A DNA stretch of 64,000 nucleotides, taken from positions 14,582 through 78,581 of the forward strand of contig CAVJDT010000003.1 of NCBI GenBank assembly GCA_963648435.1. The letters run 5' to 3'. Numbering within the stretch: the stretch's first letter is position 1; each line of letters opens with the position of its first letter. This stretch comes from Bacillota bacterium. Lineage in GTDB: Bacteria > Bacillota_I > Bacilli_A > ML615J-28 > CAG-313. Position numbers and translations under genes: made by a program. Positions 2,131 through 55,655 of this stretch are shown one piece after another. Under the pieces are notes generated by a model. It was not told the origin of the DNA. It was given only the letters and a program-made list of their open reading frames with translations, and did no database searches.

Positions 2131-2160
2131 AAAAAGTTAGAGCGATAACTCTAACTTTTT
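2131..2160. terminator. bidirectional rho-independent terminator between the aro operon and the convergent pilus operon
   Basis: AAAAGTTAGAG-cgat-AACTCTAACTTTTTTT: 8-bp stem flanked by an A-run and a T-run. Confidence 0.7.
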
Positions 2161-2724
2161 TTATAAATTAACCGTAACGCTTACCCCATCATTACTAGTA
2201 TATGTAAAACCATTAATCCATAATTTATCATATGCCCCTGTCGCCGCATTCTTAACTCTACAATGAAGTATGACAACTCCTTTTGAAGATTTATAAGTTA
2301 TGTCATTTTCAATAATTTCAGCACATGTCGTAAATTTAACTGGTTGGTATTCGAAAGTACCATTTTCAAAACCTGAAACTGCGTTAAATGCATCTGCGAG
2401 AAACCTTCGGCAGAAAAGATCATAATTAATATCATCATCTTCATGCCCTGAAATGCTTGGAGTAGTAGCCATAACTGGATAAGATAGAAAGAAATAATCA
2501 CCATTATCCGAAATTAAAATTATATCATTTATCTCATTGATACGTTTACATAAACTATATTGAAGCAAGGTTACATCATCTATTTTACTTGCCTGTTTTA
2601 CTTTTTCGCTTAAACCTTTAAAACTTTTAAAACTAATAAGCGAAATAGATGAAATTACCAAAATTACAAGCAAACATTCAATTACACTAAAACCTTTTTC
2701 ATTTTGTCTATTTAACATTTCCAA
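2161..2724 (-). CDS. type IV pilin-like protein (minor pseudopilin); last gene of the pilus operon
   Basis: N-terminus NEKGFSVIECLLVILVISSISLI: class III prepilin signal (G|FxxxE) followed by a hydrophobic helix. Confidence 0.55.
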   Translation of the reverse strand: MEMLNRQNEKGFSVIECLLVILVISSISLISFKSFKGLSEKVKQASKIDDVTLLQYSLCKRINEINDIILISDNGDYFFLSYPVMATTPSISGHEDDDINYDLFCRRFLADAFNAVSGFENGTFEYQPVKFTTCAEIIENDITYKSSKGVVILHCRVKNAATGAYDKLWINGFTYTSNDGVSVTVNL

Positions 2725-3096
2725 CTACTTACTATAAGCATATTTGGCCGATTTACCATTATTGGAATAAGTTATTTCTTTATCATCGATTGTAAGAGTA
2801 GATGTAGCTGGTAATAAATTTCCTGATAATGTTTCAAATGCCTTTTTAACATCCTTTAAACCTTTAATATCCGTATAACTTACAATTGTAGTTCCATCAA
2901 CTTGTGAATTTTCCATAATTGCAACTTCAAATGTTTTTATAATTTCAGTTAATTGTTCTTCAACAACTACTTGTTTACTTTTATCAACATACTTTGTGTA
3001 ATTAGTAACTAATAAAGTTCCAAGTACCCCCATAATTGTAATAACAACTAATAATTCAACTAACGTAAAACCTTTTTCTTTCTTATTTGTAAACAT
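2725..3096 (-). CDS. type IV major pilin / ComGC-like pseudopilin
   Basis: Canonical KGFTLVELLVVITIMGVLG prepilin N-terminus. The start was moved to the internal Met (MFTNKKEKGF) because the track ORF extends into pilB. Confidence 0.75.
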   Translation of the reverse strand: MFTNKKEKGFTLVELLVVITIMGVLGTLLVTNYTKYVDKSKQVVVEEQLTEIIKTFEVAIMENSQVDGTTIVSYTDIKGLKDVKKAFETLSGNLLPATSTLTIDDKEITYSNNGKSAKYAYSK

Positions 3097-3109
3097 TTTA
3101 TATCCCTCC

Positions 3110-4588
3110 CTAAATTTCTTCGATTGAAGTGATTCCCTCAATCACTGCTTTTTTATGTTTTTCACTTAAAAGAATCATTTTATTTTTCTTAGCATATTGT
3201 TCTATTTTCTTTTCACTTGTTTCAGATAAAATCATTTCTTTAATTTTATCATCAACTTCTAAAACTTCACTAAGTAAAAGTCGACCCTTGTATCCAGTAT
3301 TGAAACAATATTGACACCCCCTTTTCTTGTATAATTTTACATCATCGTTTATTTCAAGCTTTTGCCTAATATCGAAAGTTAGTTTTCTTTCTTCCTTACA
3401 TTTTGGACAAAGTACTTCAACTAAACGTTGACATATAACCACCCTTAAAGCACTACTAACTAAATATTTGGGAATCCCCATATCTAATAACCTTGTAATT
3501 GCCCCAATACTTGATGTTGTATGAAGTGTTGAAATTACTAAATGACCACTAAGAGCCGCTCTCATCGCAATTGAGGCGGTTTCTTCGTCTCTAATTTCAC
3601 CAATCATAATAACATTAGGGTCTTGACGTAAAATACTCCGTAATGCACTCGCAAAGGTTAAACCTGCTTGTTGATTAACCTGAATTTGGTTAATACCATC
3701 AATGGTATATTCAACCGGATCTTCAATTGTCACAATATTACTATCTTGCTTGTTTAATTCATTTAAAAAAGTATACATAGTCGTTGTTTTTCCACATCCA
3801 GTTGGACCCGTAACAAGAATCATTCCTGACTTTTCACTTAATAATGATTTAATGATTTTTTCCTCATTATTTGTATAATTTAAATTATTAAAATTAGCAT
3901 ATAATCGCATTTTATCTAAGACTCTAATAACAATTTTTTCACCTAAAACTGTAGGAACTGCACTAACCCGGAGGTCATAATCTTTATCTTTGATTTGATA
4001 TTTTAGTTTACCATCTTGTGGTAACATCTTTTTAGTAATATCAAGAGATGCCATAATCTTGATTCTTGCTAAAACTTCTTCATATAAATCTTTTCTAATT
4101 TTATCCATCTCGGTTAATTTGCCATCAAGTCTAATTCTAATAACTGATTCACCAGCATGAGGTTCAATATGGATGTCACTAGCCCCAAGTACTATGGCTT
4201 TTTCAATCCAAATATTAACCATTTGAACCACCGGGGAAGTATCGATTTCTTGATATTCAATTTTAGGTTCTTCATTTAATACTTTGGGTTCTAATTTTTC
4301 ACTATATTTTGAATAATTATAACGTTCTTTTCCCATTAGTTTTAAAAGTTCATATTTTTTAACCCATTCATCTTTACTTAATAAATAAACATGAAATTCA
4401 CTTGTCGATGTGACAAACAATTCACTACATGTATAATAAGCAAATTCCTCATAAATTAAAGCAATCAACTGAAAACAATCTTCATATATTAAACAACCAT
4501 GTTCATACATCCAATCTAATGATACTTCATTCCAAATTTTATCTAAATTTAAGTGATAATTATAGGGAATTAGTTTTCCATTATTCAT
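3110..4588 (-). CDS. pilB: type IV pilus assembly ATPase (PilB/GspE family) with a ~120-aa N-terminal extension
   Basis: Walker A VTGPTGCGKTT; the Asp and His boxes are present. A C-terminal tetracysteine motif is present (CPKC..CQYC). At 492 aa it is longer than ComGA. Confidence 0.9.
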   Translation of the reverse strand: MNNGKLIPYNYHLNLDKIWNEVSLDWMYEHGCLIYEDCFQLIALIYEEFAYYTCSELFVTSTSEFHVYLLSKDEWVKKYELLKLMGKERYNYSKYSEKLEPKVLNEEPKIEYQEIDTSPVVQMVNIWIEKAIVLGASDIHIEPHAGESVIRIRLDGKLTEMDKIRKDLYEEVLARIKIMASLDITKKMLPQDGKLKYQIKDKDYDLRVSAVPTVLGEKIVIRVLDKMRLYANFNNLNYTNNEEKIIKSLLSEKSGMILVTGPTGCGKTTTMYTFLNELNKQDSNIVTIEDPVEYTIDGINQIQVNQQAGLTFASALRSILRQDPNVIMIGEIRDEETASIAMRAALSGHLVISTLHTTSSIGAITRLLDMGIPKYLVSSALRVVICQRLVEVLCPKCKEERKLTFDIRQKLEINDDVKLYKKRGCQYCFNTGYKGRLLLSEVLEVDDKIKEMILSETSEKKIEQYAKKNKMILLSEKHKKAVIEGITSIEEI

Positions 4589-4589
4589 T

Positions 4590-5816
4590 TTACACCTCCA
4601 TCATTTCATTCATAATTTTAAATAAAGGTAAGAATACTGCGATAACAACTAATGTCACAATTAAAGCCATTAAAACAATAATCGCAGGTTCAATAATTTT
4701 AGTTAATTTTGAGGTTTTATTATCAGCTTCATTATCATAATAATCAGCCGTACTTTTTAAAACATTATCTAAATTATTTGATTCTTCCCCAATTTTAATC
4801 ATTTCAATCATCATAATTGGAAAATATCCAACTATACTTAACGCACTAGATAAATTTTGACCTTGATATACCCTTGTATTTACAATTTCTAGTTTTTTTC
4901 TTAAATATTTATTATCAATTAAACTTATAGTTTTAGATAAGGCCGTAAATAATGGAATTCCACTACCATACATCATGGCAAGTGATCTTGTGAAATTAGA
5001 AGTAATTAACCACTTCTGAATTTTACCATAAATTAAGCTCTTCGTCTTTAAATAATCTATTGTATAATTCCCCTTAGCCCGGCTAATCATTTTAATAATT
5101 AAATATCCAAATAAAATTCCAAGGAGCACAAATATAGCATTTTTTTGAAAAAAACTAGATACTTTAAAAATGATTATTGTTATTTTAGGCATTTCTTTCA
5201 AATTTAAATTAACAAAAATTTCCTTAAATTTTGGTATTATAAAAAAGAACAAAACCCCAATAATTAATATCGTTATTCCAAGTAGTAGACAAGGATAAAT
5301 TAATGCACTTTTTACTTTTTGTTTTAACAAATGGTCTTTATAATAATAATTCTTTAAATACACTAACACATCAATTAATTTATTTGCCTCTTCTCCTGTT
5401 TTAATCATCATAATAAAAAGACTAGGAAAATACTGTTTAAAGGATTCTAAACTTGATGAAAACGACATTCCTGCTTGAAGGTTTCGAATTATTTTTTTGA
5501 TTATATTATTAAGCAAATAATGATGATAATTTTCATTAAAAGCTTTTAGTGCATTAACTAAAGATACTCCGGACTTTAACATAACCACTAAGTTTTCACA
5601 AAAATTAGAAATCACAATGCTTTTAATTTTAGTATTCATTAAATTTGTGTAATTTCTTACCTTCTTGCATCTAATAAGTTTAAGGTTTGAACTTGCTAAA
5701 AAGTCTTTAAGTTCTTCTTTACTACTCGCATATCCACTATTTTTAATTTTTTGATGTTGGGCATTTAAGACAACATAATTATATTTATTATCCATGCTTT
5801 CCTCTCCATTCTTCAA
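4590..5816 (-). CDS. pilC: type IV pilus inner-membrane platform protein (PilC/GspF family)
   Basis: Two GspF repeats and three TM segments; GSGIPLFTAL.. motif; abuts pilB with a 1-nt gap. Confidence 0.85.
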   Translation of the reverse strand: MKNGEESMDNKYNYVVLNAQHQKIKNSGYASSKEELKDFLASSNLKLIRCKKVRNYTNLMNTKIKSIVISNFCENLVVMLKSGVSLVNALKAFNENYHHYLLNNIIKKIIRNLQAGMSFSSSLESFKQYFPSLFIMMIKTGEEANKLIDVLVYLKNYYYKDHLLKQKVKSALIYPCLLLGITILIIGVLFFFIIPKFKEIFVNLNLKEMPKITIIIFKVSSFFQKNAIFVLLGILFGYLIIKMISRAKGNYTIDYLKTKSLIYGKIQKWLITSNFTRSLAMMYGSGIPLFTALSKTISLIDNKYLRKKLEIVNTRVYQGQNLSSALSIVGYFPIMMIEMIKIGEESNNLDNVLKSTADYYDNEADNKTSKLTKIIEPAIIVLMALIVTLVVIAVFLPLFKIMNEMMEV

Positions 5817-6195
5817 TTACAATTTTATCATCAACTACCGAACAATAAATCAGCAAACCATATCCCCGCTTGTACAAGACAGCTTGATTTAAAAGAATAC
5901 TAATACAATATTTATTTGAATTCTTATCAATAAGATTGCACCCGCCTCCAATATACGCATTAGCATTAAAAAAATATTCATGATAGGTACTTCGTTTCGG
6001 CTTTTTATCGTTTAGTTCTTCTAGCAATCTATGGCCAATATTTTCTATTAATGATCGGCAATAACAATCACTAAAATAAGCATTATCTAAATATTGAACA
6101 CTAACATTGCGAATGATTATCGTTGTAAGACTTGCTAGAATAACAATCATTAATAAAAGATTATAATAAGCTAAAAATCCTTTTTCTTTAGACAT
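5788..6195 (-). CDS. pilin-like protein (atypical: no Glu at +5)
   Basis: MSKEKGFLAYYNLLLMIVILASL: KG|F followed by a hydrophobic helix, but position +5 is Tyr. Overlaps neighbours on both sides. Confidence 0.5.
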   Translation of the reverse strand: MSKEKGFLAYYNLLLMIVILASLTTIIIRNVSVQYLDNAYFSDCYCRSLIENIGHRLLEELNDKKPKRSTYHEYFFNANAYIGGGCNLIDKNSNKYCISILLNQAVLYKRGYGLLIYCSVVDDKIVIEEWRGKHG

Positions 6196-6592
6196 AATGC
6201 CACCTCATTAATTCCAAATCTCGAAAATAGCGTAGTGATAAGTTTTTAAGCTTTTCTGGAAATTCAATTTTCAAAAGATATCGATGAATATTTTTTTCAA
6301 TTTCTTCACTATATGTAAGTTTAATTGCATATTCTTTGTTATCATAAGTCAAAATAACCTGATTATCTTGATAATTAAACATTTTCTTAATGTCATCTTC
6401 AAAATTATTCTTAGAATTATAAAATATTTCTGTTATTTTGACATAATTAATTGTCATATACTGTTGAATAGTATATTCCGTAATAGTTTGTTTACCCGCA
6501 AGGGATAAATACGTAATTCCAATAATTAAACTTAAAATTAACAACATCGACCAAGATGCTTCAATAATTGTAAATCCATTTTCCTTTTTCAT
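6188..6592 (-). CDS. type IV pilin-like protein (minor pilin)
   Basis: KENGFTIIEASWSMLLILSLIIG; the start was placed at the internal Met (MKKENGF) directly downstream of the previous stop. Confidence 0.6.
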   Translation of the reverse strand: MKKENGFTIIEASWSMLLILSLIIGITYLSLAGKQTITEYTIQQYMTINYVKITEIFYNSKNNFEDDIKKMFNYQDNQVILTYDNKEYAIKLTYSEEIEKNIHRYLLKIEFPEKLKNLSLRYFRDLELMRWHYV

Positions 6593-6593
6593 C

Positions 6594-7262
6594 TTATACC
6601 ACACTAGCCACACGACTATGGTGTAAACCATCAATCTTTAAAGATTTTTTATCAGAAAGCACCAATATTTTAGAAATAGTATAATCATTTTTATCAAGCA
6701 ATTGCATAATCTTAGTATCTACTTTATCATCATCAATAGTAATTATTTGTTTTAATCCAACTTCATCATAAAGCATTCCCACTAACATTTCATCTAAATA
6801 GATAAAAACTAAGTCATGACATTCATCTTTATATTTTTGTTCAATATATAAAGATAATAACATTCCTTGTTTTAATTTTTGATTAAACATTTTAAAAAAT
6901 TCTTTTACTTCCATATATTGTAATTTATTTAAACACCATATTTTTAAATAATTCCACTTTTTTTGCTTTACTTCTTTTTTAATTGTCACAATTTTGTCAA
7001 CATTGTAATTAAACTTTAATAAAATTTCATTTTTAATATTATTTTTCTTATTACTTTCACTCCTGATATAAGCTTGATTATAGAAGTGAAATAACCAAAT
7101 TATCTTGGTTTTATTTTGATAATAAATTAATAAATTACGCATAACCTCATCATATAATGAAATTAAATCATCATTTTCCAAACAACATTGATTATTTTGA
7201 CTAATTATCCTAACTTCCCACTTTACTCTATTTCTAATAACCACAACATAAACTTCACTCAT
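6594..7262 (-). CDS. hypothetical soluble protein encoded within the pilus operon
   Basis: 222-aa ORF tightly packed between pilin genes (8-nt overlap upstream). No motif I recognise and no TM segment. Confidence 0.4.
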   Translation of the reverse strand: MSEVYVVVIRNRVKWEVRIISQNNQCCLENDDLISLYDEVMRNLLIYYQNKTKIIWLFHFYNQAYIRSESNKKNNIKNEILLKFNYNVDKIVTIKKEVKQKKWNYLKIWCLNKLQYMEVKEFFKMFNQKLKQGMLLSLYIEQKYKDECHDLVFIYLDEMLVGMLYDEVGLKQIITIDDDKVDTKIMQLLDKNDYTISKILVLSDKKSLKIDGLHHSRVASVV

Positions 7263-7677
7263 ATATCCACCTCACAAATAAATTATCTTGACCATTAATC
7301 CCATCAAACATTAATACTAAATAATTATTTTCAATTTTACATGAAAAATTATAAATTAATTTAAATTCATATTCCGCACCAAAGTAATTTTCACAAATTG
7401 CATTATTTTTCACCCACAAAGCTAACTTATCATCAACATATACTTCATATTGTTCATTTCCATATTTAAGAACTTTATTGTCGGTTTTTATATTATCGAC
7501 AGTCATTAATAAATGATAGGCTTTTATCAGTTCATTATAATAAGCCCGATCTTTTTCATATTTACCATCATAAGTATTATAAAGGCTTATAACCTTAATC
7601 ACCATCGTGCTAGCTAAACTAATCATTAAGATTGCTAGTATGACCTCTAAAATAGTGATTCCTTTTTCTTTTTTCAT
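7255..7677 (-). CDS. type IV pilin-like protein; first gene of the pilus operon
   Basis: MKKEKGITILEVILAILMISLAS: prepilin signal G|ITILE. RBS GGTGATG lies 4 nt upstream of the ATG. Confidence 0.6.
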   Translation of the reverse strand: MKKEKGITILEVILAILMISLASTMVIKVISLYNTYDGKYEKDRAYYNELIKAYHLLMTVDNIKTDNKVLKYGNEQYEVYVDDKLALWVKNNAICENYFGAEYEFKLIYNFSCKIENNYLVLMFDGINGQDNLFVRWIYE

Positions 7678-7726
7678 TTAACATCACCAACCTTATATTA
7701 CGTTAATATTTTAATTTTTCCATTTT

Positions 7727-7873
7727 AAAAAACGTATTTCCGTTAGGAAAAAACGTATTTCCGTTAGGAAAAAACGTATTTCCGTTAGGAAAAAACGTAT
7801 TTCCGTTAGGAAAAAACGTATTTCCGTTAGGAAAAAACGTATTTCCGTTAGGAAAAAACGTATTTCCGTTAGG
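7727..7873. repeat. seven perfect tandem copies of a 21-bp unit, AAAAAACGTATTTCCGTTAGG
   Basis: Read directly from the sequence. Each unit contains AACG-N6-CGTT partial dyad symmetry. The array lies between the regulator gene stop and the pilus operon start, about 49 nt from the ATG at 7677. Confidence 0.95.
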
Positions 7874-7882
7874 AAATACGTT
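7853..7882 (-). terminator. rho-independent terminator of the LuxR-type gene, built from the last repeat unit
   Basis: Minus strand reads AACGTATTTCC-taac-GGAAATACGTT followed by TTTTTT (11-bp perfect stem). The 3' arm plus T-tract is the repeat unit itself. Confidence 0.7.
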
Positions 7883-9353
7883 ATTTATTAACATCACCAT
7901 ACTTTAAGATTAATTCAATTTTTGAATTAACCCCTAATTTTCGGTAAATATTTTTATAATGAAAATTAACTGAATCATACTTCATACTAAGTTCCCCCGC
8001 AATCTGCCTTAAAGTAAGACCTTCAATCAAAAAGTCAAATACAATCTTTTCTTTGGGGGTTAAAACCTCATTAGGGTCGATAATTACATCTTTGGTTTTT
8101 ATTTTATCAATGCTTTCAGGGGTACCACTTTTAATCTTTAAAACATTGATATATCCAAGAACATTGATAATAATTAAAATAACACCGATTAATGCATTCA
8201 TAATCATCATTGTAATCGCTATGGCTCTAGTATCAATATTCATTAAATATTTGCATAAAAAGACACTTGAAAAAGTAAAACAAATAGCACATAGTGATAC
8301 ATATAAAAGATTAAACTTTGATGCTTTATCATCTAGGACTTTAGCAATCAACATAAAAATAATGATATAACCTAAAGAACTTGAAAAGCCATATGCCAAA
8401 TCCGCGGCGTAACGCCAAAATGCTAAATTACTATCATAAGCAATATTGAATATTGTTAATTGATGAGCACCAAATAGTGACATAAAGTAAACAATAATAA
8501 GTAAAATTATAGCTTTTTTAGAATATAAGAAAGCAATAACCGTTACTAAACAACAAATTAAAAATCCAATATAATAGGTAGTAGAATAATATGATTTTGT
8601 TGCTTGAATGCCCCGCGTATGAACACTTAATTCAATGGCCCCCACAAAAGCTTGGTTCATGCAAACTACAAATAACATTCCAACTAACAATATCAATGAA
8701 TAATTTGGAACTTTTTCACTTTTATCGATTATTACAAAATAATCACTACAAAAAATAAATAATAAGTAAACAATTAAGGCTAAAAAAGAAGGCATATAAA
8801 TTCTTATAACTACTTCATTGGTAATTGCATTAAAATAAAAAGAATAACTAAAAAATAATAAGATAAGGATTAAACTAAATATTAATCGTTCACTCATTCC
8901 AAATGAATATAAAAATAAATTAACAATTAATCCAAAAATAAGGCCATAACCAAAGCCAAGTAACACTGAGCCTATAGTTAAACTTAAATTATTAAAGGAA
9001 TAATAACTAAATAAAATTCCCACAATTGCTAAGGGAGCAGAAATAAACTTAAAATATCTTAAAACTATTTGTTTAGAAACAACAACCACGATGATAATTG
9101 CAAACATTACCCCTAAAGCAATCCCAAATAATTGATAAATGTTTTCCGTAACATTTACATTTTCATAATCAAATAGTTTCATAAATCTAAAAATAAAATC
9201 AACTACTAGTAGTGATGAAAAGATTGATAAAAATATCGATTTTAAGGAAGGTTTAGTAAAATAAACCTTACTAGATTCCTTTTTACGATTAGCTAAAATT
9301 ACACTTAATTTCGAAAATACTTTCGTTATTTTCTTCTCTTTTTTAGTGTCCAT
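7881..9353 (-). CDS. polytopic membrane protein with a C-terminal LuxR/GerE-type HTH (membrane-embedded one-component regulator)
   Basis: About 12 predicted TM helices over the first ~400 aa. The C-terminus LTPKEKIVFDFLIEGLTLRQIAGELSMKYDSVNFHYKNIYRKLGVNSKIELI matches the LuxR HTH signature. Confidence 0.7.
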   Translation of the reverse strand: MDTKKEKKITKVFSKLSVILANRKKESSKVYFTKPSLKSIFLSIFSSLLVVDFIFRFMKLFDYENVNVTENIYQLFGIALGVMFAIIIVVVVSKQIVLRYFKFISAPLAIVGILFSYYSFNNLSLTIGSVLLGFGYGLIFGLIVNLFLYSFGMSERLIFSLILILLFFSYSFYFNAITNEVVIRIYMPSFLALIVYLLFIFCSDYFVIIDKSEKVPNYSLILLVGMLFVVCMNQAFVGAIELSVHTRGIQATKSYYSTTYYIGFLICCLVTVIAFLYSKKAIILLIIVYFMSLFGAHQLTIFNIAYDSNLAFWRYAADLAYGFSSSLGYIIIFMLIAKVLDDKASKFNLLYVSLCAICFTFSSVFLCKYLMNIDTRAIAITMMIMNALIGVILIIINVLGYINVLKIKSGTPESIDKIKTKDVIIDPNEVLTPKEKIVFDFLIEGLTLRQIAGELSMKYDSVNFHYKNIYRKLGVNSKIELILKYGDVNK

Positions 9354-9509
9354 AATCTCCCTCCAACTTATTTATTATACCATATTTTGACATATTATTA
9401 AAGCAAAACACAACCTAAATACTGAAGGACAAATATTGAACCATAAAATTATACAACTCTTCATTAATATTGCCTATTTACCCACTAATTTGCCTTAAAT
9501 ACGAAAATA

Positions 9510-9818
9510 TTACTCACTTATTAGTGATAACATCCTTTCATATCTACAAAAATATGGTAAACATTTAACTTTCATATTTTGTTCAAGTAAGTAAATATCC
9601 CCAAATAAACTAACGTTTAGTCTATTATTCTTTAAATACTTTTCAAACTCCTCTTTTTCCATCATTCCATAACCCGTTAGTTTTTCACTTACAATTCTTG
9701 AAGTTAATACTTCTGAGATTTGAGCTAAGTAATTAAATTTTGTTACAACTCGGATAATTACTTTTTTTCTTTTCTTAATTAAATCATTTAACTCTTCACA
9801 ATTAATTATTTTATGCAT
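9510..9818 (-). CDS. hypothetical small protein
   Basis: 102-aa ORF with a GGAGGT RBS 5 nt upstream of the ATG; divergent from tmcAL; no motif I can name. Confidence 0.4.
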   Translation of the reverse strand: MHKIINCEELNDLIKKRKKVIIRVVTKFNYLAQISEVLTSRIVSEKLTGYGMMEKEEFEKYLKNNRLNVSLFGDIYLLEQNMKVKCLPYFCRYERMLSLISE

Positions 9819-9855
9819 AATATACCTCCATTTCGTAAATTATAGCATAAATGAA

Positions 9856-9884
9856 TTGCGAAAAAATGCATTTTTTGGTATAAT
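9856..9884 (+). promoter_or_regulatory. sigma-A-type promoter for tmcAL-mrp
   Basis: TTGCGA, 17-nt spacer, then TGgTATAAT (extended -10). AAAGGAGAA RBS before the ATG at 9918. Confidence 0.55.
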
Positions 9885-9917
9885 AACTATAAGTATTTAA
9901 AAAGAAAGGAGAACCTT

Positions 9918-11075
9918 ATGCCAGTAGTTGGTTTAATTTTTGAAGCAAATCCTTTTCATAACGGTCATAAACACCTAATTACAAATGCAAAAAATCTTTT
10001 TCCTGATTCTCCTTTAATTTGCATTACCTCTACTTCCTTTACCATGCGTGGTGAAATTTCTATTATCAATAAATTTGATAAAATTCAAATTTTACAAAAT
10101 GAAAACATTGATATTATTCTTGAACTTCCGGTTAGTTACACCCTCCAAAGTGCCGATTACTTTGCATGGAGCACCGTTTCCATTTTAAACCAAATCGGAG
10201 TAACTGATATTGTAATTGGATGTGAAACTACCGATCTTAAAAAATTTGAAAGATTTTATGAAATAATTAATTCAAATGAATTCTTAAAAACCTTTAAAAA
10301 TAATTCTACTAAAACTAGTCACAAAAAAAATTTTACTGAAGTTTTAACAAAAATGAAAATTGAAGCATCAGAAATTGAGGAATTTAATAAACCCAATTTT
10401 ACTTTAGGCTTTCAGTATTACCGGGTAATTAGAGATCAAAACCTAAGCATTAACCTTCATTTAATTAAAAGAACTAGTGATTATTACCAAAAGGAATGTT
10501 CAAATTCTAACATTGCAAGTGCGTCTTATATTCGAGAATCCTTTCAAAAAAATGAAGATATCGATAAATATTTGCCTTATAAACCTAATTTTATCGACCC
10601 TAGAGCGGCTGAAAATAATTTACTTAAAATAATTACTTTTCAAACTCTCCAATTTCCATTTACTGATCCTTTCAAAAAAATAAATGGTAATAGCGAAGGT
10701 TTAGGCAACTATATCATGAAAAATGGGGACTTCACAAAGACTTATTCTAACCTACTTGATTCCTTAAAAAATAAAAAGTACTCAGTTAATCGCCTTAGAA
10801 GGATCCTAATTTCTCTTCTTATTCAGTTAAAGATGGTTGACCTTTCAAACATAAATTACTTAAGAATCTTAGGTATCAATAAAACAGGCCTTAATTATCT
10901 CAATTCTTTAAATAAAACAACGAAAAAAATGATTTTTTCATCACCTAATGAATTAGCAAAAATTCCTGAAACATTACGTTATGAAATTATCGCCACTAAA
11001 TTATATGGAATCTTAACAAATAATCCTAAGATTTATCTAAGTGAATATAAATTACCAATTAGAAAGAAGGAATAA
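9918..11075 (+). CDS. tmcAL: tRNA(Met) cytidine acetate ligase (YlbM/UPF0348 nucleotidyltransferase)
   Basis: N-terminal GLIFEANPFHNGHKHLI (HxGH nucleotidyltransferase motif characteristic of YlbM/TmcAL). Confidence 0.7.
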   Translation: MPVVGLIFEANPFHNGHKHLITNAKNLFPDSPLICITSTSFTMRGEISIINKFDKIQILQNENIDIILELPVSYTLQSADYFAWSTVSILNQIGVTDIVIGCETTDLKKFERFYEIINSNEFLKTFKNNSTKTSHKKNFTEVLTKMKIEASEIEEFNKPNFTLGFQYYRVIRDQNLSINLHLIKRTSDYYQKECSNSNIASASYIRESFQKNEDIDKYLPYKPNFIDPRAAENNLLKIITFQTLQFPFTDPFKKINGNSEGLGNYIMKNGDFTKTYSNLLDSLKNKKYSVNRLRRILISLLIQLKMVDLSNINYLRILGINKTGLNYLNSLNKTTKKMIFSSPNELAKIPETLRYEIIATKLYGILTNNPKIYLSEYKLPIRKKE

Positions 11076-11076
11076 A

Positions 11077-12090
11077 ATGACAATACATGAACTTAGACAA
11101 TTACTAGATGGAGTTATCGATCCTAGTAATGGTAATACTTTAAAGGAAAATAACGCCATTAAGCACCTTGCTTACAATGATGATAACGACCTTATTACTT
11201 TAATTGTATCAATGCATAATAACGATAAAGTTTACGAAAAAATCCTTAAAAGAGAAATCGCAAAAATAGTTAAAATAACGGCTGGTTATAAAGGACTTCG
11301 CCTTGAAATAGAACAAGAAAAAGGCCTTAACTCATCGGTTAATAAACAAATTACCTATATTGGGGTTATTAGTGGTAAAGGTGGAGTCGGCAAAAGTAGT
11401 GTCGCCGCGAACATCGCTTACCGGATGGTAAAACGCAATTTTAAAGTTGGTGTAATTGACGCGGACATATATGGAGCCAGCCTACCTACCATTTTAGGAT
11501 TTGAACATCAATATCCAAGATACGATGAAAACAAAAAAATAATCCCTATTAAAGCTGGAAACCTAGAGATAATTTCCACTGAATTTTTCACTGAACCATC
11601 CCAACCCGTAATTTGGAGAGGTGGTATGCTTAATAGTATGCTAAATCACTTCTTCTATGATGTTAAATGGGCAGATGACACTGATTTTATCATTATTGAT
11701 TTTCCACCAGGAACTGGTGATATTACCTTAGACATTAAAAACATTGTGCCTGAATGCAAAATGATTCTAGTTACCACCCCTCATCCATCAGCATCCCATG
11801 TCGCGGTAAAAGCCGGACACGCCGCTACTAAATTAGGACATGAAATTTTAGGGGTGATTGAAAATATGTCATATTATGAAAATCCAATCAATCATGAAAA
11901 AGAATACATTTTTGGTGATGGTGGTGGAGAACAAGTTGCAAAAGAACTTAATACCGAACTTATTGCGAAAATTCCTATCGCAAGACCTGCAAATGGTACT
12001 GACCTTTTTGAAATTGATGAAACAAATGGTAAAATATATGATGATATCTTAGATTATATTTTAATTACCCTTCATAAAAATGAAAACTAA
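11077..12090 (+). CDS. mrp: Mrp/ApbC/NBP35-family Fe-S cluster carrier ATPase with N-terminal DUF59
   Basis: GKGGVGKSSVAANIA deviant Walker A. The start was moved to MTIHELRQ because the track start overlaps the tmcAL end. Confidence 0.85.
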   Translation: MTIHELRQLLDGVIDPSNGNTLKENNAIKHLAYNDDNDLITLIVSMHNNDKVYEKILKREIAKIVKITAGYKGLRLEIEQEKGLNSSVNKQITYIGVISGKGGVGKSSVAANIAYRMVKRNFKVGVIDADIYGASLPTILGFEHQYPRYDENKKIIPIKAGNLEIISTEFFTEPSQPVIWRGGMLNSMLNHFFYDVKWADDTDFIIIDFPPGTGDITLDIKNIVPECKMILVTTPHPSASHVAVKAGHAATKLGHEILGVIENMSYYENPINHEKEYIFGDGGGEQVAKELNTELIAKIPIARPANGTDLFEIDETNGKIYDDILDYILITLHKNEN

Positions 12091-12120
12091 AAACCATACC
12101 GATTTAGTATGGTTTTTTCT
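12091..12120. terminator. bidirectional rho-independent terminator
   Basis: AAAAACCATAC-cgatttag-TATGGTTTTTTC directly after the mrp stop. Confidence 0.7.
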
Positions 12121-12127
12121 TATTAAT

Positions 12128-12499
12128 TTATTCTTCATGATGATGACAACAACAATGATGTTCTTCACATTCACATTCATCATCACATTCACATTCGCCA
12201 TCACATTCTTCATCCATTTGGGCTTCATAGTCAGCAACAGCATCTTCAATTAATGACCATTCTTCGTCAGTTTCAATTTCACTTAATTCACCACTGCCAT
12301 CTTCACCTTCTGTGAATGAAGCCGCCATTAATTGAATTTGTTCAGAATCATCATCATTTAGTGCTTCAATGGGATAGAAAACAACATATTTCTTGTTAAA
12401 TTCTTCTGATTCTAATGTAAATAAAATTTGACATAATTTTTCATTGCCTTCAGCATCAATTACCGTTAATTGACCATCAGTTGGTTTGATTTCACTCAT
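12128..12499 (-). CDS. DUF1292 (YrzB-like) protein with an extra Cys/His/acidic C-terminal tail
   Basis: Position downstream of ruvX and the core EGNEKLCQILFTLESEEFNKKYVVFYPIE resemble YrzB. The tail is DEECDGECECDDECECEEHHCCCHHHEE. Confidence 0.6.
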   Translation of the reverse strand: MSEIKPTDGQLTVIDAEGNEKLCQILFTLESEEFNKKYVVFYPIEALNDDDSEQIQLMAASFTEGEDGSGELSEIETDEEWSLIEDAVADYEAQMDEECDGECECDDECECEEHHCCCHHHEE

Positions 12500-12513
12500 T
12501 TTAATATTCTCCT

Positions 12514-12936
12514 TTAATTCATTTTTTTACTGTCTAAATAAGATTGTAAAATTAATGTCGCAGCTAAAGTATCAACTTTCTTTTTGCGTTTAGCCCTACT
12601 CAAATCAGCGGAAATCATTAAGTTATTAACCTCAACTGAAGTAAGCCTTTCATCATATAAGATAACTTCTAAATTAGTGCTTTTTTCTAACATTGCCTTG
12701 AATTCATAAACATATTCAGCTTGTGGCCCAATTGTTCCATTCATATTAATGGGATGTCCAAGCACAATCTTATCTACTTTTTTTTCAGCAATTAACATTA
12801 TAACACATTCTAAACATTTTTGCAAATCTTTCTCTCTAAAACGTATCGTATCATATGATGTAGCTATCGTTTCCGATAAATCACTGAAAGCAACCCCACA
12901 TGTACGATTACCTAAATCAAGTCCCATAATTCTCAT
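12514..12936 (-). CDS. ruvX: Holliday-junction resolvase-like / pre-16S rRNA nuclease YqgF
   Basis: MRIMGLDLGNRTCGVAFSD..ILYDERLTS; the start overlaps the alaS stop. Confidence 0.9.
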   Translation of the reverse strand: MRIMGLDLGNRTCGVAFSDLSETIATSYDTIRFREKDLQKCLECVIMLIAEKKVDKIVLGHPINMNGTIGPQAEYVYEFKAMLEKSTNLEVILYDERLTSVEVNNLMISADLSRAKRKKKVDTLAATLILQSYLDSKKMN

Positions 12937-15638
12937 TATTTGATCATTTCCTTTACTTTTGCAAGGGCTTCATCAATTTTATTTACATCTTTACCCCCTG
13001 CTTGGGCAAAATCGGGTCTACCACCACCATTACCACCAGTTATGATGGCAGCAGTTTTAACTAAATCCCCAGAGCGATTGTTATTGCCTTTTGATTTAGC
13101 AATGAAAACTATTTTTCCATGACTTACACTTGCGATAAACACAACACAATTTGCCATAGTAGCACTAATCTTATCAATAATATCCTTTACAACATCAATT
13201 TCATAGTCTTCAAGTTTTGTAATCACCACATCAATACCATTAATTTGATATTTATTATTAATTAAAGATTCATAATTAGAAGATTTATGTGCTCGATAAA
13301 TATTATCAAATTCCTTATCTAGTTCTTTTATTTCATTTCTAGCCTTAATTAACGCCTCACGATAATTTAAAATATCTTGATAACTACTAGTAAAACGAGG
13401 TAAAATAATCGGACTTGATACAAGAGTAATCTTTTCATCATTAGCTTTAGCCATAATAGCTTTACGCTTTGCTTCTAAATTTTTCAAATCTTCAATTATT
13501 CCACTTAATTTTTCTTGTTCTGATGCTATTATATTATTTTTAGTAGCAGCTTCAATTCTAAAAATACCAGATCCTTTAGATTCAACCCCTAAAATGGCAA
13601 ATTTTTCAATTTCCATGGTATTTTTAACATGCGTACCACCACAAAGTTCCTTACTATAAGCCATTTCCACTAATCTAACCTTAGAACCATACTTTTCACC
13701 AAACACAGCTTGAGCCCCAAGAGCTTTAGCCTTATCAATGGTTGTAATTGTTGTTGTCACAATATTATTTTCTTTAATTGCTTTATTAACAATTTGTTCA
13801 ATTTCCAAAATTTGTTTTGAAGTTAAATTCTCATAATTATTAAAATCAAACCTTAAACCTTCATTTGTTACTTGACTACCTTGTTGAATAACATGTTTAC
13901 CTAAAACCATTCTTAAAGCCTCATTTAATAAATGGGTTGCGGAATGGTTAGAAGCAGTATCTGCTCTAAAGGCTTCGTCTACTTCAAGAAAAACTGCATC
14001 CCCTTCATGAAGAATTGCATCTTTCATATTTACGATATGAGCAGATTGACCATTTGGAAATTTCATTGTATTTAAAATATTGAAAGTTTCATTATTAATT
14101 ATTAAATGTCCTTGGTCACCATTTTGACCACCACTTTCACCATAAAAAGGCGTTTTATCAAATAGTACAATAACTTCACCATTGGCTTCTTTTACTTCAT
14201 GACCATTTTTAAAGATTCCTATTACTTTAGCATCACAATTTAAAGTATCATAGCCAACAAATAATGATTCTTTTTTAAAATTTATATATTCTTCATTTTG
14301 CGTATTCATTGATTGTTCACTATTACGGGCTTTACGAGCTCTTTCTTTTTGTTTTTGAAGTTCATTATTAAAAGCATCAATATCAACCGTAAAACCTTTA
14401 TCTTCGGCAGCTTCCACCGTTAATTCAATCGGAAAGCCGAAAGTGTCATATAGTAAAAAAGCATCACTACCACTAATTATCTTACTTTTAGCATTTTCAA
14501 TAATATCATTAAGTTTCTTTTCGCCTGATTCTAAAGTTTTTAAGAAATTTTCTTCTTCTATTTTAACTAATTTAGTAATAATGGTTTCTTTTTCAACTAA
14601 ATATGAATAAAAACTCTTCATATTTTCAATTACAACTGAAACAATTTTATATAAGAAAGGTTCATTTATACCTAAACGTTTTCCCATTCTAACCGCACGT
14701 CTTAAGATTCTTCTTAATACATAGCCACGACCCTCATTTGATAAAATGGCCCCATCAGCAAGAGCGAAAACAACACTTCTAATATGATCAACAATAACTC
14801 TAAATGCCATCTTTTGAGACTGTGAACATTCACCATATTTAATGCCGGATAACGTCTCAACATATTTAATCATTGGCATAAATAAGTCCGTTTCATAATT
14901 AGTTTCAACTCCCTGAAAAACACAAGCAAATCTTTCAAGTCCACCACCTGTATCAATATTTTTACTAGGTAATTCCGGATAATCCTCACGCTTTAAACCT
15001 GGAGTTGAATTAAATTGACTAAACACAATATTCCAAATTTCAATATAACGATCATTCTCAATATCTTCCGCAAGTAATTTAATACCTAAACCATTAGGGT
15101 CATATTTTTCACCACGGTCAAAGAAAATTTCCGTATCAGGTCCACAAGGTCCTTCTCCTATTTCCCAGAAGTTATCAGCAATCGGAACTAAATGCGCAGG
15201 ATTAACACCTAAACTAACCCATTTATTGTAAGTATCTTTATCATCTGGATAATAAGTAATATAAATTAAATCCCGAGGAATTCCAAACCACTTTTCATCA
15301 AATAATAACTCACTTGCAAATTCCAAAGCTTCATTTCTAAAATAATCACCAATTGAAAAATTACCTAACATTTCAAAAAAGGTATGATGACGAGCTGTTT
15401 TTCCAACATTTTCAATATCATTAGTACGTAATGACTTTTGAGCATTACATAAACGAGGATTTTCAGGCTTCTCACGACCATCAAAATATTTTTTAAGCGG
15501 GGCAACCCCTGCATTAATCCAAAGTAAAGTAGGATCATCAATTGGAATTAGCGATGCACTTGGTACAATTTTATGACCTTTACTGGCAAAAAAATCAAGC
15601 CACATTTGTCTAATTTCATAACTTTTTAAATTTTTCAT
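12936..15638 (-). CDS. alaS: alanine--tRNA ligase
   Basis: 900 aa: class II catalytic core, editing domain (HxxxH..CGGTH) and C-terminal DHHA1 (GGGRPDFAQAGG). Confidence 0.95.
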   Translation of the reverse strand: MKNLKSYEIRQMWLDFFASKGHKIVPSASLIPIDDPTLLWINAGVAPLKKYFDGREKPENPRLCNAQKSLRTNDIENVGKTARHHTFFEMLGNFSIGDYFRNEALEFASELLFDEKWFGIPRDLIYITYYPDDKDTYNKWVSLGVNPAHLVPIADNFWEIGEGPCGPDTEIFFDRGEKYDPNGLGIKLLAEDIENDRYIEIWNIVFSQFNSTPGLKREDYPELPSKNIDTGGGLERFACVFQGVETNYETDLFMPMIKYVETLSGIKYGECSQSQKMAFRVIVDHIRSVVFALADGAILSNEGRGYVLRRILRRAVRMGKRLGINEPFLYKIVSVVIENMKSFYSYLVEKETIITKLVKIEEENFLKTLESGEKKLNDIIENAKSKIISGSDAFLLYDTFGFPIELTVEAAEDKGFTVDIDAFNNELQKQKERARKARNSEQSMNTQNEEYINFKKESLFVGYDTLNCDAKVIGIFKNGHEVKEANGEVIVLFDKTPFYGESGGQNGDQGHLIINNETFNILNTMKFPNGQSAHIVNMKDAILHEGDAVFLEVDEAFRADTASNHSATHLLNEALRMVLGKHVIQQGSQVTNEGLRFDFNNYENLTSKQILEIEQIVNKAIKENNIVTTTITTIDKAKALGAQAVFGEKYGSKVRLVEMAYSKELCGGTHVKNTMEIEKFAILGVESKGSGIFRIEAATKNNIIASEQEKLSGIIEDLKNLEAKRKAIMAKANDEKITLVSSPIILPRFTSSYQDILNYREALIKARNEIKELDKEFDNIYRAHKSSNYESLINNKYQINGIDVVITKLEDYEIDVVKDIIDKISATMANCVVFIASVSHGKIVFIAKSKGNNNRSGDLVKTAAIITGGNGGGRPDFAQAGGKDVNKIDEALAKVKEMIK

Positions 15639-15878
15639 ATTATCTTTTTCCCTTCATTGCTTAAAAAAAGTTCCCATGCCTAAGCATAGGAACGAATAAA
15701 TCGCGGTACCATCCTAATTTGTAGTTACATAACCACACACTTAATTAGTTATAACGTAACTACCGGGAATTGTTAATTCCTCTCAAAAGGAGCTTCAATA
15801 CGAGTAATCTAGTTTTTCACCAACCAACTAGTCTCTAAAATTTACTCTATATTTACTAATCTTTATCATCGATTTGTA
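15639..15878 (-). promoter_or_regulatory. T-box riboswitch leader of alaS
   Basis: Minus strand carries the T-box AATTAGGATGGTACCGCG (~15703-15720) with the UGGU bulge. The terminator is GTTCCtatgcttaggcatGGGAAC plus seven T's (~15664-15694). Stem I has AGAGA motifs, and a GCU triplet sits in GAAGCUCC (~15792). Confidence 0.7.
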
Positions 15879-18800
15879 TTATGCTGCTTGTTCTTCTTTA
15901 GAAACTGCGGCAGCTTTTTCTTTTTCAGCAGCTTTTTGTTTAGCTAGTTTTTCTTTTTCAAGAGCTTTTTGTTTAGCTAACTTTTCTTTTTCTTTTTCAG
16001 CAGCTTTTTGTTTAGCTAGTTTTTCTTTTTCAAGAGCTTTTTGTTTAGCTAACTTTTCTTTTTCTTTTTCAGCAGCTTTTTGTTTAGCTAGTTTTTCTTT
16101 TTCAAGAGCTTTTTGTTTAGCTAACTTTTCTTTTTCTTTTTCAGCAGCTTTTTGTTTAGCTAGTTTTTCTTTTTCAAGAGCTTTTTGTTTAGCTAACTTT
16201 TCTTTTTCTTTTTCAGCAGCTTTTTGTTTTGCAAGTTTTTCTTTTTCAAGAGCTAACGCGGCATCTTTACGAGCTTTTTCTTCAGCTGCGGCTTGTAATT
16301 TAGCTTCTTTTTCAGCTTGAGCTGCTGCCATTTCAGCTTGTTTACGAGCTTTTTCTTCTTCAACTGCTTTTTGTTTTTCAGCTTTAATTGCATCTTTTTC
16401 AGCTTGTTTACGAGCTTTTTCTTCTTCAATTAATCTTTGCTTTTCAGCATCTAATTCTTCATAGTATGCAATTGAATTCTTAATAATGTTCTTAACTAGT
16501 TTTTCATCTAATTCGCCTTTATTAACTAATCTAAACCATTGTTCGCCCTTAGGACTAGTAGCTTTAACAATTGTTCCAGGATATTCAACAATTAGAGGGA
16601 AAGCTTTTTCTTGATTACTACAGAAAGTAATACGATAATCATTATTAGTTGACATAGTAATTAAGAATAATCTCTTACCAAAGAAATATCTACTAATGTT
16701 GCCTTTTGCATTTGGAACAACTTTAATTTCTTTATTAGGAATAGTTGATGCATATTTAACAACTTTTTCATATGAAGGTTTAAATACTTTTTTCTTCTTT
16801 AATTTTTCACGAGCTTCTTTTTCTTTTTCTTTAGCTATTCTTTCAGCTTCTCTTTCAGCTTCAGCTTTTCTAAGTGAATCAAGTTCTTCTAATTCTTTAG
16901 CAACTCTTGCATCTTCTGCTGCTTTTGCTTCTTCTGCCACTTTTGCTTCTTCTGCCGCTTTTGCTTCTTCTGCTAGTCTTGCTTCTTCTGCCGCTTTTGC
17001 AATTTCAGCTTGTCTTGCTTCTTCAGCTAGTCTTGCTTCTTCTGCCGCTTTTGCTTCTTCTTCAAGTCTTGCAAGTTCAGCTTGATGGGCAGCTTCTACT
17101 GCTTTTGCTTCTTCTTCAAGTCTTGCAAGTTCAGCCGCATGATCAGCACGACGTTTTTCCTCAGCTTCTCTTAATGTTGCAAGTTCTTCTTTTTCAGCTT
17201 GACGTTCAGCTTCTACTACTTTTGCCTCTTCTTCAAGTCTTGCTACTTCTGCTTGATGAGTTTCTTCAGTAGTTTTTGCAACTTCTTCAAGTCTTGCTAC
17301 TTCTGCTTGATGAGCTTCTTTTTCAGCCTTTGCAACTTCTTCAAGTCTTGCAATTTCAGCTTGATGAGTTTCTTCAGTAGTTTTTGCAACTTCTTCAAGT
17401 CTTGCTACTTCTGCTTGATGAGCTTCTTTTTCAGCCTTTGCAACTTCTTCAAGTCTTGCAATTTCAGCTTGATGAGTTTCTTCAGTAGTTTTTGCAACTT
17501 CTTCAAGTCTTGCTACTTCTGCTTGATGAGCTTCTTTTTCAGCCTTTGCAACTTCTTCAAGTCTTGCAATTTCAGCTTGATGAGTTTCTTCAGTAGTTTT
17601 TGCAACTTCTTCAAGTCTTGCTACTTCTGCTTGATGATTAGCTTCTGCAGCTTTAGCTTCTTCAAATAGTCTTGTTACTTCTGCTTGATGATTAGCTTCT
17701 GCAGCTTTTGCTTCTTCAGATAGTCTTGCACATTCTGCTTGATGAGCTTCTTTTTCAGCTTTAGCTTCTTCAGATAATCTTGCTACTTCTGCTTGATGAT
17801 TAGCTTCTGCAGCTTTTGCTTCTTCCTCAAGTCTTGCGCATTCTGCTTGATGAACTTCTTTTTCAGTTTTAGCTTCTTCAGATAGTCTTGCAAGTTCAAC
17901 TTCATAAGCTTTTTTAGCTTCACGTAATTTTTCAAGTTCAATGTGTTCTGCAATACGCTCAGCTTCTGCTCTTCTTAAAGCATCAAGTTCAGCACGGTCT
18001 GCACGACGTTCAGCTTCAGAAGTTCTTAAATATTCAAGTTCAGCATGTTCAACGCGATGTTTTTCTTCAGCTTTTCTTAAAGCATCAAGTTCAGCTTTAC
18101 TTTCTGGGCTCATTACTTCAACTACTTTTTCAATTACTTCAGGAACATATTCAGCTTTTTCTTTTGCAAAAGCAATTTTTTCCGCATTCAATGTTGCTTT
18201 TTCATTTTCAAGTGTATTTCTTTCTTCAGTAACTTTATTTTGTTCACTAACATATTCTAATTGCATTTGAGCAAGTAAAACTTGTAAATGAGCTAATTTA
18301 TCTTGTAGTGCAACTACTCTAGCATCTAATACCGGAGGTTTTTCTTGTTCTTCAGCGATACTCTTCTTTAATTCTTCGATTTCTATTTCAAGTGCTGTTT
18401 TCATGCTTTCAATCACCTCAATTTCATGTCTTAAAGTTTCTAATTCATCGTTTTCTAAACCACATAATCCTAATTGGTCTCTTGTATAAGTAAATAATTG
18501 TTCAAGAATATGTTGTTCAGCTTTATCATATTCTTTCTTATGAGCTTCAATAAAATCTTTAATTAAACGTGTTCTTGATTCAACTGAATATTCAGGATTT
18601 AATTTATATAATTTAACCATTGATAATACATGTAAACCAGTAATTAAACCACCAAATACAATTGGAATAATCAAGAAAAATACCGATGAATTAAAGGTTG
18701 TGCTTCCTTTAACTAAAGCAACATATTTATTTCCCATATCATTCATATAGAATAATAATCCTATGAATACGAGTGCAACAACTGTATCAATTAGCATCAT

Positions 18801-47679: not shown

Positions 47680-48022
47680 GCGGTTTAAAAATTAAAGCAA
47701 CAATAAATGATGAAAAAATGGCGGTGGAAATACCACTAGATGTTATATCAAAAATACCAGTAAAAAGTCCCATTATGCCGCTTTCTTCAGCTGCTTTTAG
47801 GGCCGCATGCGTTAAGGAATGTCCAAAAGATGAAATGGGGACAAGAGCTCCCCCACCAGCTACTTTAATTAATTTATCATATAGACCAAAACATTCTAAA
47901 AATGAACCAAGCATAACGTATATAACTGTTAAATGAATAGGAAGTAATTTAGCTAAATCCATGATTAACTGAGCAATCATACAAATTAATCCACACACTA
48001 AAAATGCTAGTAAAAACTTCAT
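47672..48022 (-). CDS. spoVAEb: stage V sporulation protein AEb
   Basis: 116 aa, multi-TM; sits between spoVAD and spoVAF as in Bacillus. Confidence 0.75.
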   Translation of the reverse strand: MKFLLAFLVCGLICMIAQLIMDLAKLLPIHLTVIYVMLGSFLECFGLYDKLIKVAGGGALVPISSFGHSLTHAALKAAEESGIMGLFTGIFDITSSGISTAIFSSFIVALIFKPRG

Positions 48023-49030: not shown

Positions 49031-49031
49031 A

Positions 49032-55477: not shown

Positions 55478-55655
55478 TTTTACACCCCCTTAAATATTGT
55501 ACCAAACAATATACCAAGATTCAATAACAATTATTTAATCTATTATTTTATGACATAATTCGAACCATCATACTTTGTCAAATAACATAAAAAATAAAAA
55601 AACAAACCAACTTTATCAATTAGTTTGTTACATTTAACTTAAAATTAAAATAAAA

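Follow-up and report, generated by a model that had tools for sequence, protein, structure and literature searches.

Com pili, described in reviews as a minimal machine, consist of exactly five pilins, a peptidase, an ATPase and a platform protein and contain no PilMNOP, which has led to the question of why other systems need PilMNOP (PMC10191384). The type IVa pilus (T4aP) is described as having originated via acquisition of PilMNO, PulL is regarded as equivalent to a PilM-PilN fusion, and type II secretion systems (T2SS) are described as confined to diderms (PMC10191384). In monoderm Com systems, PilMNOP homologues are absent or very rare alongside, and the peptidase gene comC is a 'loner' gene (PMC6668835). 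We have analysed a 64,000-nucleotide stretch of Bacillota DNA (contig CAVJDT010000003.1 of assembly GCA_963648435.1, positions 14,582 to 78,581 of the forward strand; hereafter the window, numbered from its first letter), in which eight open reading frames (ORFs) on the minus strand, from 7677 to 2161, form a cluster of pilus type. We consider it likely that this region is a single operon from which a monoderm Bacillota builds a streamlined machine for type IV filament (T4F) assembly, equipped with a free GspL/PilM-like adaptor. The cluster, which comes from uncultured gut Bacillota, belongs to a known type of machine, of which it is a streamlined version specific to its lineage. Its parts list is that of Com plus one M/L-like protein, whereas its motor and platform are T4aP/T2SS-like in sequence.

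An earlier note on this DNA had recognized the eight ORFs at these positions and called them a type IV pilus or pseudopilus cluster, which is borne out by the presence of T2SSF and T2SSE domains and of prepilin motifs. In transcript order the genes encode a minor pilin, a soluble protein of 222 aa, a second minor pilin, a pilin-like protein without Glu5, the PilC platform, a PilB/GspE-type ATPase, the major pilin and a further minor pilin. Since three of the ORF junctions overlap by 8 nt, PilC and PilB abut, and no terminator is predicted on the minus strand inside the cluster, the eight genes are read as one transcription unit. Gene calls in relatives and the positions of ribosome-binding sites (RBS) indicate that some of the starts lie elsewhere than first called: the 148-aa ORF most likely begins at 6592 (134 aa), PilC at 5795 (401 aa), the major pilin at 3096 (123 aa) and the last pilin at 2718 (185 aa).

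This gene order, which had been pointed out as non-canonical, is identical in all relatives recovered (L002, L003, L081, L082, L083/84, L085/86, L087, L090 and L092), as far as the contig of each one reaches, and it is kept even where the 222-aa protein is only about 27% identical. None of these relatives carries the comGA-first arrangement that the earlier note had considered as a possibility. The claim that the order departs from canonical ones holds, the adjacent pilC-pilB pair being found in 0 of 77 other loci, but PilC ahead of PilB does have precedent, as it occurs in 26 of these 77 Bacillota-type loci, always at a distance of about 2.3 kb with pilM, pilN and pilO in between.

The ratio of nonsynonymous to synonymous substitution rates (dN/dS) lies between 0.04 and 0.5 across all eight genes, being 0.04–0.11 for PilB and PilC and 0.17–0.5 for the pilins, with the Glu5-less pilin highest; for the 222-aa gene it amounts to 0.13–0.14 against the two closest relatives and to 0.33 against L083. 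All eight genes are thus real, constrained and under purifying selection. One could still suppose that the cluster is a decaying remnant and its 222-aa ORF a non-functional gene, given that its family is very small, that no peptidase is encoded nearby and that the neighbouring regulator is split in L085. Yet every fetched locus has all its ORFs intact across a dS of about 0.5–2, with the dN/dS just given, and the start/stop codon overlaps, the RBS and a promoter-like block are conserved, which makes decay a very improbable explanation.

The soluble 222-aa protein (6594..7262) is one of the parts that set the cluster apart from described Com systems. It has no match in Pfam (E<=1) or NCBIfam, including PF05134 (T2SSL) and PF11104 (PilM_2), and no transmembrane (TM) segment is predicted. 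Its family is small: two word-indexed searches retrieved seven clusters among 5.8 billion proteins, and a full hidden Markov model (HMM) scan of 1.84 billion representatives gave five matches. The full-length HMM matches with a retrievable contig (P0007, P0008 and P0010) are each encoded in the same type of cluster (3/3). Relatives outside this family were found neither in the protein word searches nor in the HMM search or the metagenome scan, and when the family was aligned by hhalign to 20 PilM proteins of Bacillota, the probability was below 1%. The statement that this ORF belongs to no recognizable family therefore stands at the level of sequence (Pfam, NCBIfam), but its predicted fold is that of the GspL/PilM class.

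Indeed, the 7 aligned family sequences yield an AlphaFold (AF2) model of reasonable confidence (pLDDT 77.5, pTM 0.78), which consists of a beta-beta-beta-alpha-beta domain into which a beta-alpha-beta-beta subdomain is inserted, then two helices and a second domain of beta-beta-beta-alpha topology. The model thereby falls under the GspL/PilM/FtsA-type actin-like fold (SHS2-containing), which is defined by a pair of RNase-H-like domains (beta-beta-beta-alpha-beta-alpha-beta-alpha) plus an inserted 1C/SHS2 subdomain. In a fold search scores were obtained with BT_3980 (11.7), PilM (11.4 and 11.0), PulL (10.7) and FtsA (about 10), and the cytoplasmic domains of two type IVb pilus (T4bP) assembly proteins scored 7.8 and 6.5. 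Foldseek placed three structures of cytoplasmic GspL (cyto-GspL) first (E=9e-8 to 8e-7, TM-score about 0.5), followed by BT_3980, FtsA and PilM. Cyto-GspL, the best match of the model, also resembles it in length (about 220–240 aa) and in its three-domain layout. With PilM of T4aP (PDB 2YCH, 5EOU; loci L005, L030) the protein shares a cytoplasmic actin-like fold, an inserted 1C/SHS2-type subdomain and a place in a pilus operon, but it is about 100 aa shorter, is truncated in its second half and has no conserved nucleotide-binding motifs in the family alignment. PilM normally binds the N-terminus of PilN; the present cluster has no PilN partner. We therefore predict, from the model, that in its fold the 222-aa protein belongs to the PilM/GspL structural class, as a soluble and very divergent member. 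The earlier note had left room for this ORF to be a known pilus alignment protein, and as far as the modelled fold goes it does fall in that class. No invariant Asp/Gly phosphate-binding loop is found in the family alignment, so ATP hydrolysis is not expected, and the sequence suggests that the protein probably serves as a non-catalytic scaffold, as in cyto-GspL.

The second line of evidence comes from the ATPase (3110..4588, 492 aa), whose T2SSE domain spans residues 115–492 (E=2.3e-127), comprising N2 and the C-terminal ATPase core, and is preceded by an N1E-like region at residues 1–114. The protein carries Walker A, Walker B and a His-box, as well as a tetracysteine zinc motif, CPKC...CQYC, whose cysteines are kept in relatives. 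The extension had been put at about 120 aa and is of 114 residues, and the tetracysteine motif noted with it is present and conserved. For residues 1–114 there is no Pfam match at E<=10, none when they are compared as a profile with PDB sequences, and no hhalign similarity to the MshEN-type N-domains of the fetched loci nor any Pfam match to MshEN; a protein search with this domain alone returned one frameshifted fragment. Residues 114–492 align to residues 114–493 of full-length Vibrio vulnificus GspE, alike in length and register, which places the extension where GspE has its N1 domain. Modelled with low confidence, the 114 residues find their best fold match in the N1 domain of EpsE; the list of this comparison also names PilF GSPII-B, Myxococcus PilB, MshE-N and XpsE-N. 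The resemblance of the ATPase N-terminal domain to the GspE N1 domain is on this basis suggestive.

In type II secretion the GspE N1 domain (EpsE) binds cyto-GspL. The GspE-cyto-GspL pair (PDB 4PHT, 2BH1, 1YF5) is matched here by the length and register of the ATPase and by its zinc motif, and the N-domain co-occurs with the 222-aa gene in 7 of the 7 family loci covering both genes, while in the other Bacillota loci examined an MshEN-type PilB is paired with full PilM, PilN and PilO. One candidate for a full-length relative of this PilB, locus L005 of Alkalibacillus, was rejected, being a canonical Bacilli T4aP locus (minor pilins / pilB(MshEN+T2SSE)-pilC-pilA-pilD-pilM-pilN-pilO) with an MshEN domain and an unrelated N-domain.

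With the ATPase, the NCBIfam model of GspE (498 bits) outscores those of PilB (458) and ComGA (283), and the protein lies below the cut-offs of both the PilB model TIGR02538 (675.65) and ComGA (300), in agreement with the claim that it resembles GspE/PilB more than ComGA. The PilC/GspF-type platform (4590..5795, 401 aa) has two T2SSF domains (E=5.8e-55) and scores 254 bits with GspF and 150 with ComGB (cut-off 240). Neither protein reaches the curated cut-off of any NCBIfam model, the ComGA and ComGB equivalogs being NF041000 and NF041012. By its sequence scores, then, the ATPase appears more GspE/PilB-like than ComGA-like, yet an equivalog of none of them.

The pilins bring the cluster closer to Com. 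The prepilin motif G↓(F/I)xxxE is present in four ORFs, and the 135-aa ORF has KG↓FLAYY instead. Profile searches, which the earlier note had proposed, gave weak ComG-type matches for some of the pilins and none for the 222-aa ORF. The major pilin candidate (2725..3096, 123 aa, MFTNKKEKG↓FTLVELLVV) has the best N_methyl match in the cluster (E=3.1e-9) along with N-terminal matches to GspG and ComGC, is 80% conserved and has a dN/dS of about 0.2; its rank as the major subunit is our assignment and should be taken as putative. Minor pilin 1 (7255..7677, 140 aa, MKKEKG↓ITILE, Glu5 present; N_methyl E=0.007; dN/dS 0.19–0.32) shows a weak near-full-length match to ComGE, with 23 bits against a cut-off of 49 and 25 bits for the L003 orthologue. 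Minor pilin 2 (6188..6592, 134 aa from MKKENG↓FTIIE, Glu5 present; N_methyl weak; dN/dS 0.17), for which the gene calls of relatives also give 134 aa, has an L003 orthologue that weakly matches ComGE. Minor pilin 4 (2161..2718, 185 aa, NEKG↓FSVIE, Glu5 present; dN/dS 0.19–0.27) scores 18 bits with TIGR02532, above the cut-off of 16.3, and has weak N-terminal matches to ComGF and ComGD. All ComG pilin scores are below cut-off, and orthology to individual ComG pilins is thus not established.

The remaining member, the Glu5-less pilin-like protein (5788..6195, 135 aa, MSKEKG↓FLAYY), is the fastest-evolving gene (dN/dS 0.34–0.50) and gives no family match in any orthologue (Pfam, NCBIfam), while EKGF(L/I)AY is kept in L002 and L003. 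An assignment of this ORF as PilN-like, on account of its 'YNLLL' motif, was rejected, the motif lying inside the prepilin TM helix right after KG↓F. The GspK and ComGG families, the latter without Glu5, provide the basis for an analogy by which this protein would probably be the tip or capping subunit.

These features raise the alternative that the cluster is simply the ComG-type competence pseudopilus operon of the organism with its order shuffled, the 222-aa protein being a lineage-specific accessory or regulator unrelated to GspL/PilM. Compared with Com/ComG ('T4dP'; ComGA-GG of B. subtilis and S. pneumoniae), the cluster is alike in having one major and four minor pilins, one of them without Glu5 as is ComGG, in its single ATPase and single platform, in a peptidase away from the operon, in the absence of PilT, PilN, PilO and secretin, and in its monoderm host. 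The parts are indeed the Com set of five pilins, ATPase, platform and loner peptidase (PMC10191384, PMC6668835), and the weak ComGE, ComGD and ComGF matches point the same way. On the other hand, the pilin count is that of the ComGC-GG type, but the ATPase and platform are not of the ComGA and ComGB types, missing the Com cut-offs (283 vs 300; 150 vs 240) and scoring higher as GspE/PilB and GspF/PilC; the 492-aa ATPase has an extra N-terminal domain and the tetracysteine motif; and Com is comGA-first, whereas here the pilins and adaptor precede PilC, PilB and the major pilin. Com is moreover described without MNOP (PMC10191384), while the 222-aa protein has a predicted PilM/cyto-GspL-like fold, its model having been placed with GspL and PilM by two independent fold searches. 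Since Erysipelotrichales are reported with canonical comGA-GG operons, a canonical comG may exist elsewhere in the genome (PMC12786226). A rearranged ComG operon thus deserves to be kept in mind as a minority explanation.

A different origin is suggested by the finding that the proteins closest to PilB and PilC, at 43–48% identity, belong to the T4aP of Clostridia and of other phyla. The cluster could accordingly be read as a reduced adhesive or motility T4aP that lost PilN, PilO and PilT and kept a truncated PilM, the more so as PilM is among the top fold matches of the 222-aa model. The Oscillospirales (Clostridia) T4aP loci L030, L052 and L059, also from Bacillota and with a PilB about 43% identical, offer in their order pilT-pilC-pilM-pilN-pilO-pilB a precedent for PilC first with PilM nearby, an arrangement with PilC first being common among Oscillospirales. 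However, these loci encode an MshEN-type PilB of about 560 aa and, after it, pilin-like minor pilins of 500–1300 aa, whereas the PilB of the present cluster is without MshEN, its minor pilins are of 134–185 aa and its major pilin precursor is of just 123 aa. In addition, the defining T4aP components (a TIGR02538 ATPase with MshEN, the PilM-PilN-PilO subcomplex and PilT) are represented within the window by an M-like fold only: its six-frame translation holds no second T2SSE ATPase (PilT), no second PilC and no further prepilin motif, no ORF has a PilN or PilO domain match, and no bitopic non-pilin ORF occurs in the cluster. A stripped-down T4aP is for these reasons rather unlikely. The three Oscillospirales loci lie at about 4500–17000 on the plus strand.

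The top scores with GspE and GspF, and the top structural matches to cyto-GspL and the GspE N1 domain, could also be taken as signs of a monoderm protein-secretion pseudopilus, that is, a T2SS-like inner-membrane core exporting folded proteins through the wall, for which one major and four minor pilins, one without Glu5, would be the equivalents of GspG-K. What is missing is the remainder of such a system: there is no homologue of GspC, GspM or the secretin GspD in or next to the cluster, the 222-aa protein has neither the TM nor the periplasmic part of a bitopic GspL nor a T2SSL match, no candidate substrate gene is present in the operon, and all NCBIfam T2SS scores are below cut-off. T2SS are also described as diderm-only (PMC10191384). 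We regard this explanation as improbable. Taken family by family, the cluster lacks defining features of Com, of T4aP and of T2SS, and clearly works like them.

Returning to a streamlined T4F machine with a free adaptor, its operation may be pictured as follows. The cell would make five prepilin-like proteins (a major one, three minor ones that have Glu5 and one that lacks it), which a peptidase encoded elsewhere would process. The absence of a prepilin peptidase from the window, remarked upon in the earlier note, is confirmed, as Peptidase_A24 was found in 0 of 10 polytopic membrane ORFs scanned, and an HMM of 15 PilD-like ORFs (jackhmmer from a Pfam-verified PilD seed) gave only noise against the six-frame translation of the window (best E=0.38) and in the relatives' DNA up to about 10 kb from the cluster; such an absence is however normal, comC being a loner (PMC6668835). 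If GspH-K and ComGD-GG are a guide, the three minor pilins with Glu5 and the subunit lacking it may prime or cap the filament, and the 123-aa major pilin would be polymerized on PilC by the hexameric GspE-like ATPase. The 222-aa protein, soluble and probably non-catalytic, is proposed from the models to dock on the N1E-like domain of the ATPase, possibly also on PilC, and so to hold the motor at the platform as an ATPase-platform adaptor. Such a role would mirror that of cyto-GspL clamping GspE in T2SS and that of PilM in T4aP, minus PilN/PilO or the TM part of GspL.

Some observations weigh against this picture. The assignment of the 222-aa protein rests on a structure predicted from a 7-sequence alignment, with no link to PilM or GspL at the sequence level; without PilN/PilO or a TM segment nothing is seen to hold the adaptor at the membrane; and the window contains no peptidase, ComEA/ComEC or other competence gene (comEA, comEC and comF were looked for in its 64 kb) that would anchor the function.

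The output of the machine would most plausibly be a short non-retractile pilus or pseudopilus. Because the five pilins, ATPase and platform are Com-like, the peptidase is a loner and PilT is absent, DNA uptake is by analogy our leading guess, held at somewhat less than even confidence; adhesion is the main alternative, and T2SS-like secretion is only remotely conceivable. The fuller proposal, that a free cyto-GspL-like protein is clamped to the N1E-like domain of the ATPase with no PilN, PilO or TM tether, and that the whole may be the DNA-uptake pilus of the lineage, is put forward tentatively. If true, the GspE-GspL motor clamp, thought to be a T2SS feature, would be present in monoderms within a Com-like minimal system, which would then be an intermediate in evolution, lying between Com pili and T4aP/T2SS, or else have been minimized independently. 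A minimal monoderm system with only a soluble GspL/PilM-like protein and a matching N-domain would isolate the function of docking and stabilizing the motor, which would thereby be separable from the membrane and periplasmic alignment functions. A small orphan 'hypothetical' family of uncultured gut Bacilli would also gain an annotation, and the lineage probably makes a pilus or pseudopilus, natural competence being possible.

Upstream of the first gene, at 7680..7723 on the minus strand, lies a promoter-like block with an RBS: ATGGAA-N17-TAATAT, whose -10 is preceded by an invariant CG, then GTTGGTGAT, 5 nt and the ATG. This pattern occurs once in the 64-kb window, with 0 expected, and is found at the same place in L003 (twice), L081, L083-L085, L087 and L090, a one-base variant (TCGTATTAT) being present in L002 and L092. 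In relatives the block is located at 6841–6869 and 6950–6978 (L003), 1411–1439 (L081), 9540–9568 (L083), 8236–8264 (L085) and 1469–1497 (L087), and in L003 the entire hairpin-plus-promoter module is duplicated. The family consensus 3' of the terminator is AAAATGGAA-N15-17-(A/T)CGTA(A/T)TAT-N4-GTTGGTGAT-N4-6-ATG. The conserved block can be read as a -35 and a -10 element spaced 17 nt apart, together with an RBS, and would accordingly function as a promoter. Its -10-like element ACGTAATAT, 18 nt before the ATG, is loosely like the SigX box TACGAATA of late competence gene promoters in streptococci (PMC6001120), a likeness in sequence and in distance to the ATG that would favour a ComG-type operon and that we offer as a lead only.

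At the other end, the 32-nt gap between the stop of an aroF-like gene (2128) and that of the last pilin (2161) holds a hairpin of 12–13 bp (2131..2160), flanked by A5 and T7 runs, which has the form of a bidirectional intrinsic terminator common to the cluster and the convergent aro operon, as the earlier note had proposed. Its folding energies on the two strands are -12.4 and -14.2 kcal/mol (z=-4.9 and -5.9), and equivalent hairpins are found at the same junction in L002 and L083/L084.

Directly upstream of the cluster is a candidate regulator (7881..9353, minus strand, 490 aa), which has a LuxR/GerE helix-turn-helix at its C-terminus (GerE domain at residues 430–483, E=1.3e-12) and 12 predicted TM helices. 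The gene has the same position in L002, L003 and L083-L085, and probably also in L081 and L087, and is divided into two ORFs in L085. Its product is possibly a membrane-bound one-component regulator of the pilus operon, a role suggested by synteny only. Most relatives share both neighbours, this gene upstream and the convergent aro operon downstream, with the exception of L085, where the downstream neighbour differs.

The regulator gene is followed by a terminator hairpin (7857–7882) and a 21-nt tandem array (7727–7876), together occupying 7727..7882 on the minus strand. The hairpin has a perfect 11-bp stem and a T run (-13.7 kcal/mol, z=-5.7). A terminator hairpin follows the LuxR-type gene in all family loci, in single copy in L083, L084, L085, L087, L090 and L092. 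The array (TRF: period 21, 7.1 copies, 100% match; unit AAAAAACGTATTTCCGTTAGG on the plus strand) is an amplified loop, 3' arm and T-tract of this terminator, and is seen in this genome alone; no exact two-unit match was found in JGI metagenome contigs. It could be a variable-number tandem repeat or an assembly artefact.

The GC content of the window is low, about 25–35%, and that of the pilus locus equals that of its flanks. A prophage or mobile-element origin of the locus was rejected on this ground and by the same housekeeping genes surrounding it in most of the relatives that cover the flanks. The window contains a T-box leader 5' of alaS, SpoVA, GerA and a sigma factor beside a SpoIIAB-like anti-sigma kinase, and its source is therefore a spore-forming Bacillota. 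Judged by PilB, 'uncultured Mollicutes bacterium UMGS75' is the closest species representative (95% identity), followed by two Bacilli metagenome-assembled genomes (69% and 66%), beyond which none exceeds 48%. In view of the sporulation and germination genes, the label 'uncultured Mollicutes' of this closest GTDB representative is evidently a loose taxonomic assignment. The segments 46279–49484 and 54167–56825 hold GerA, two SpoVAC/SpoVAEB, the small sigma factor next to the SpoIIAB-like anti-sigma kinase and a DacF-like carboxypeptidase. Just 5' of the T-box leader of alaS (15685–15878), a 1111-aa ORF (15879–19214, minus strand) has about six TM segments near its N-terminus and belongs to no Pfam family. 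Finally, a 612-aa protein with Flg_new (PF09479) repeats, encoded at 61852–63690 on the minus strand, is presumably a surface protein, and an identical protein is encoded on contigs from two other samples.

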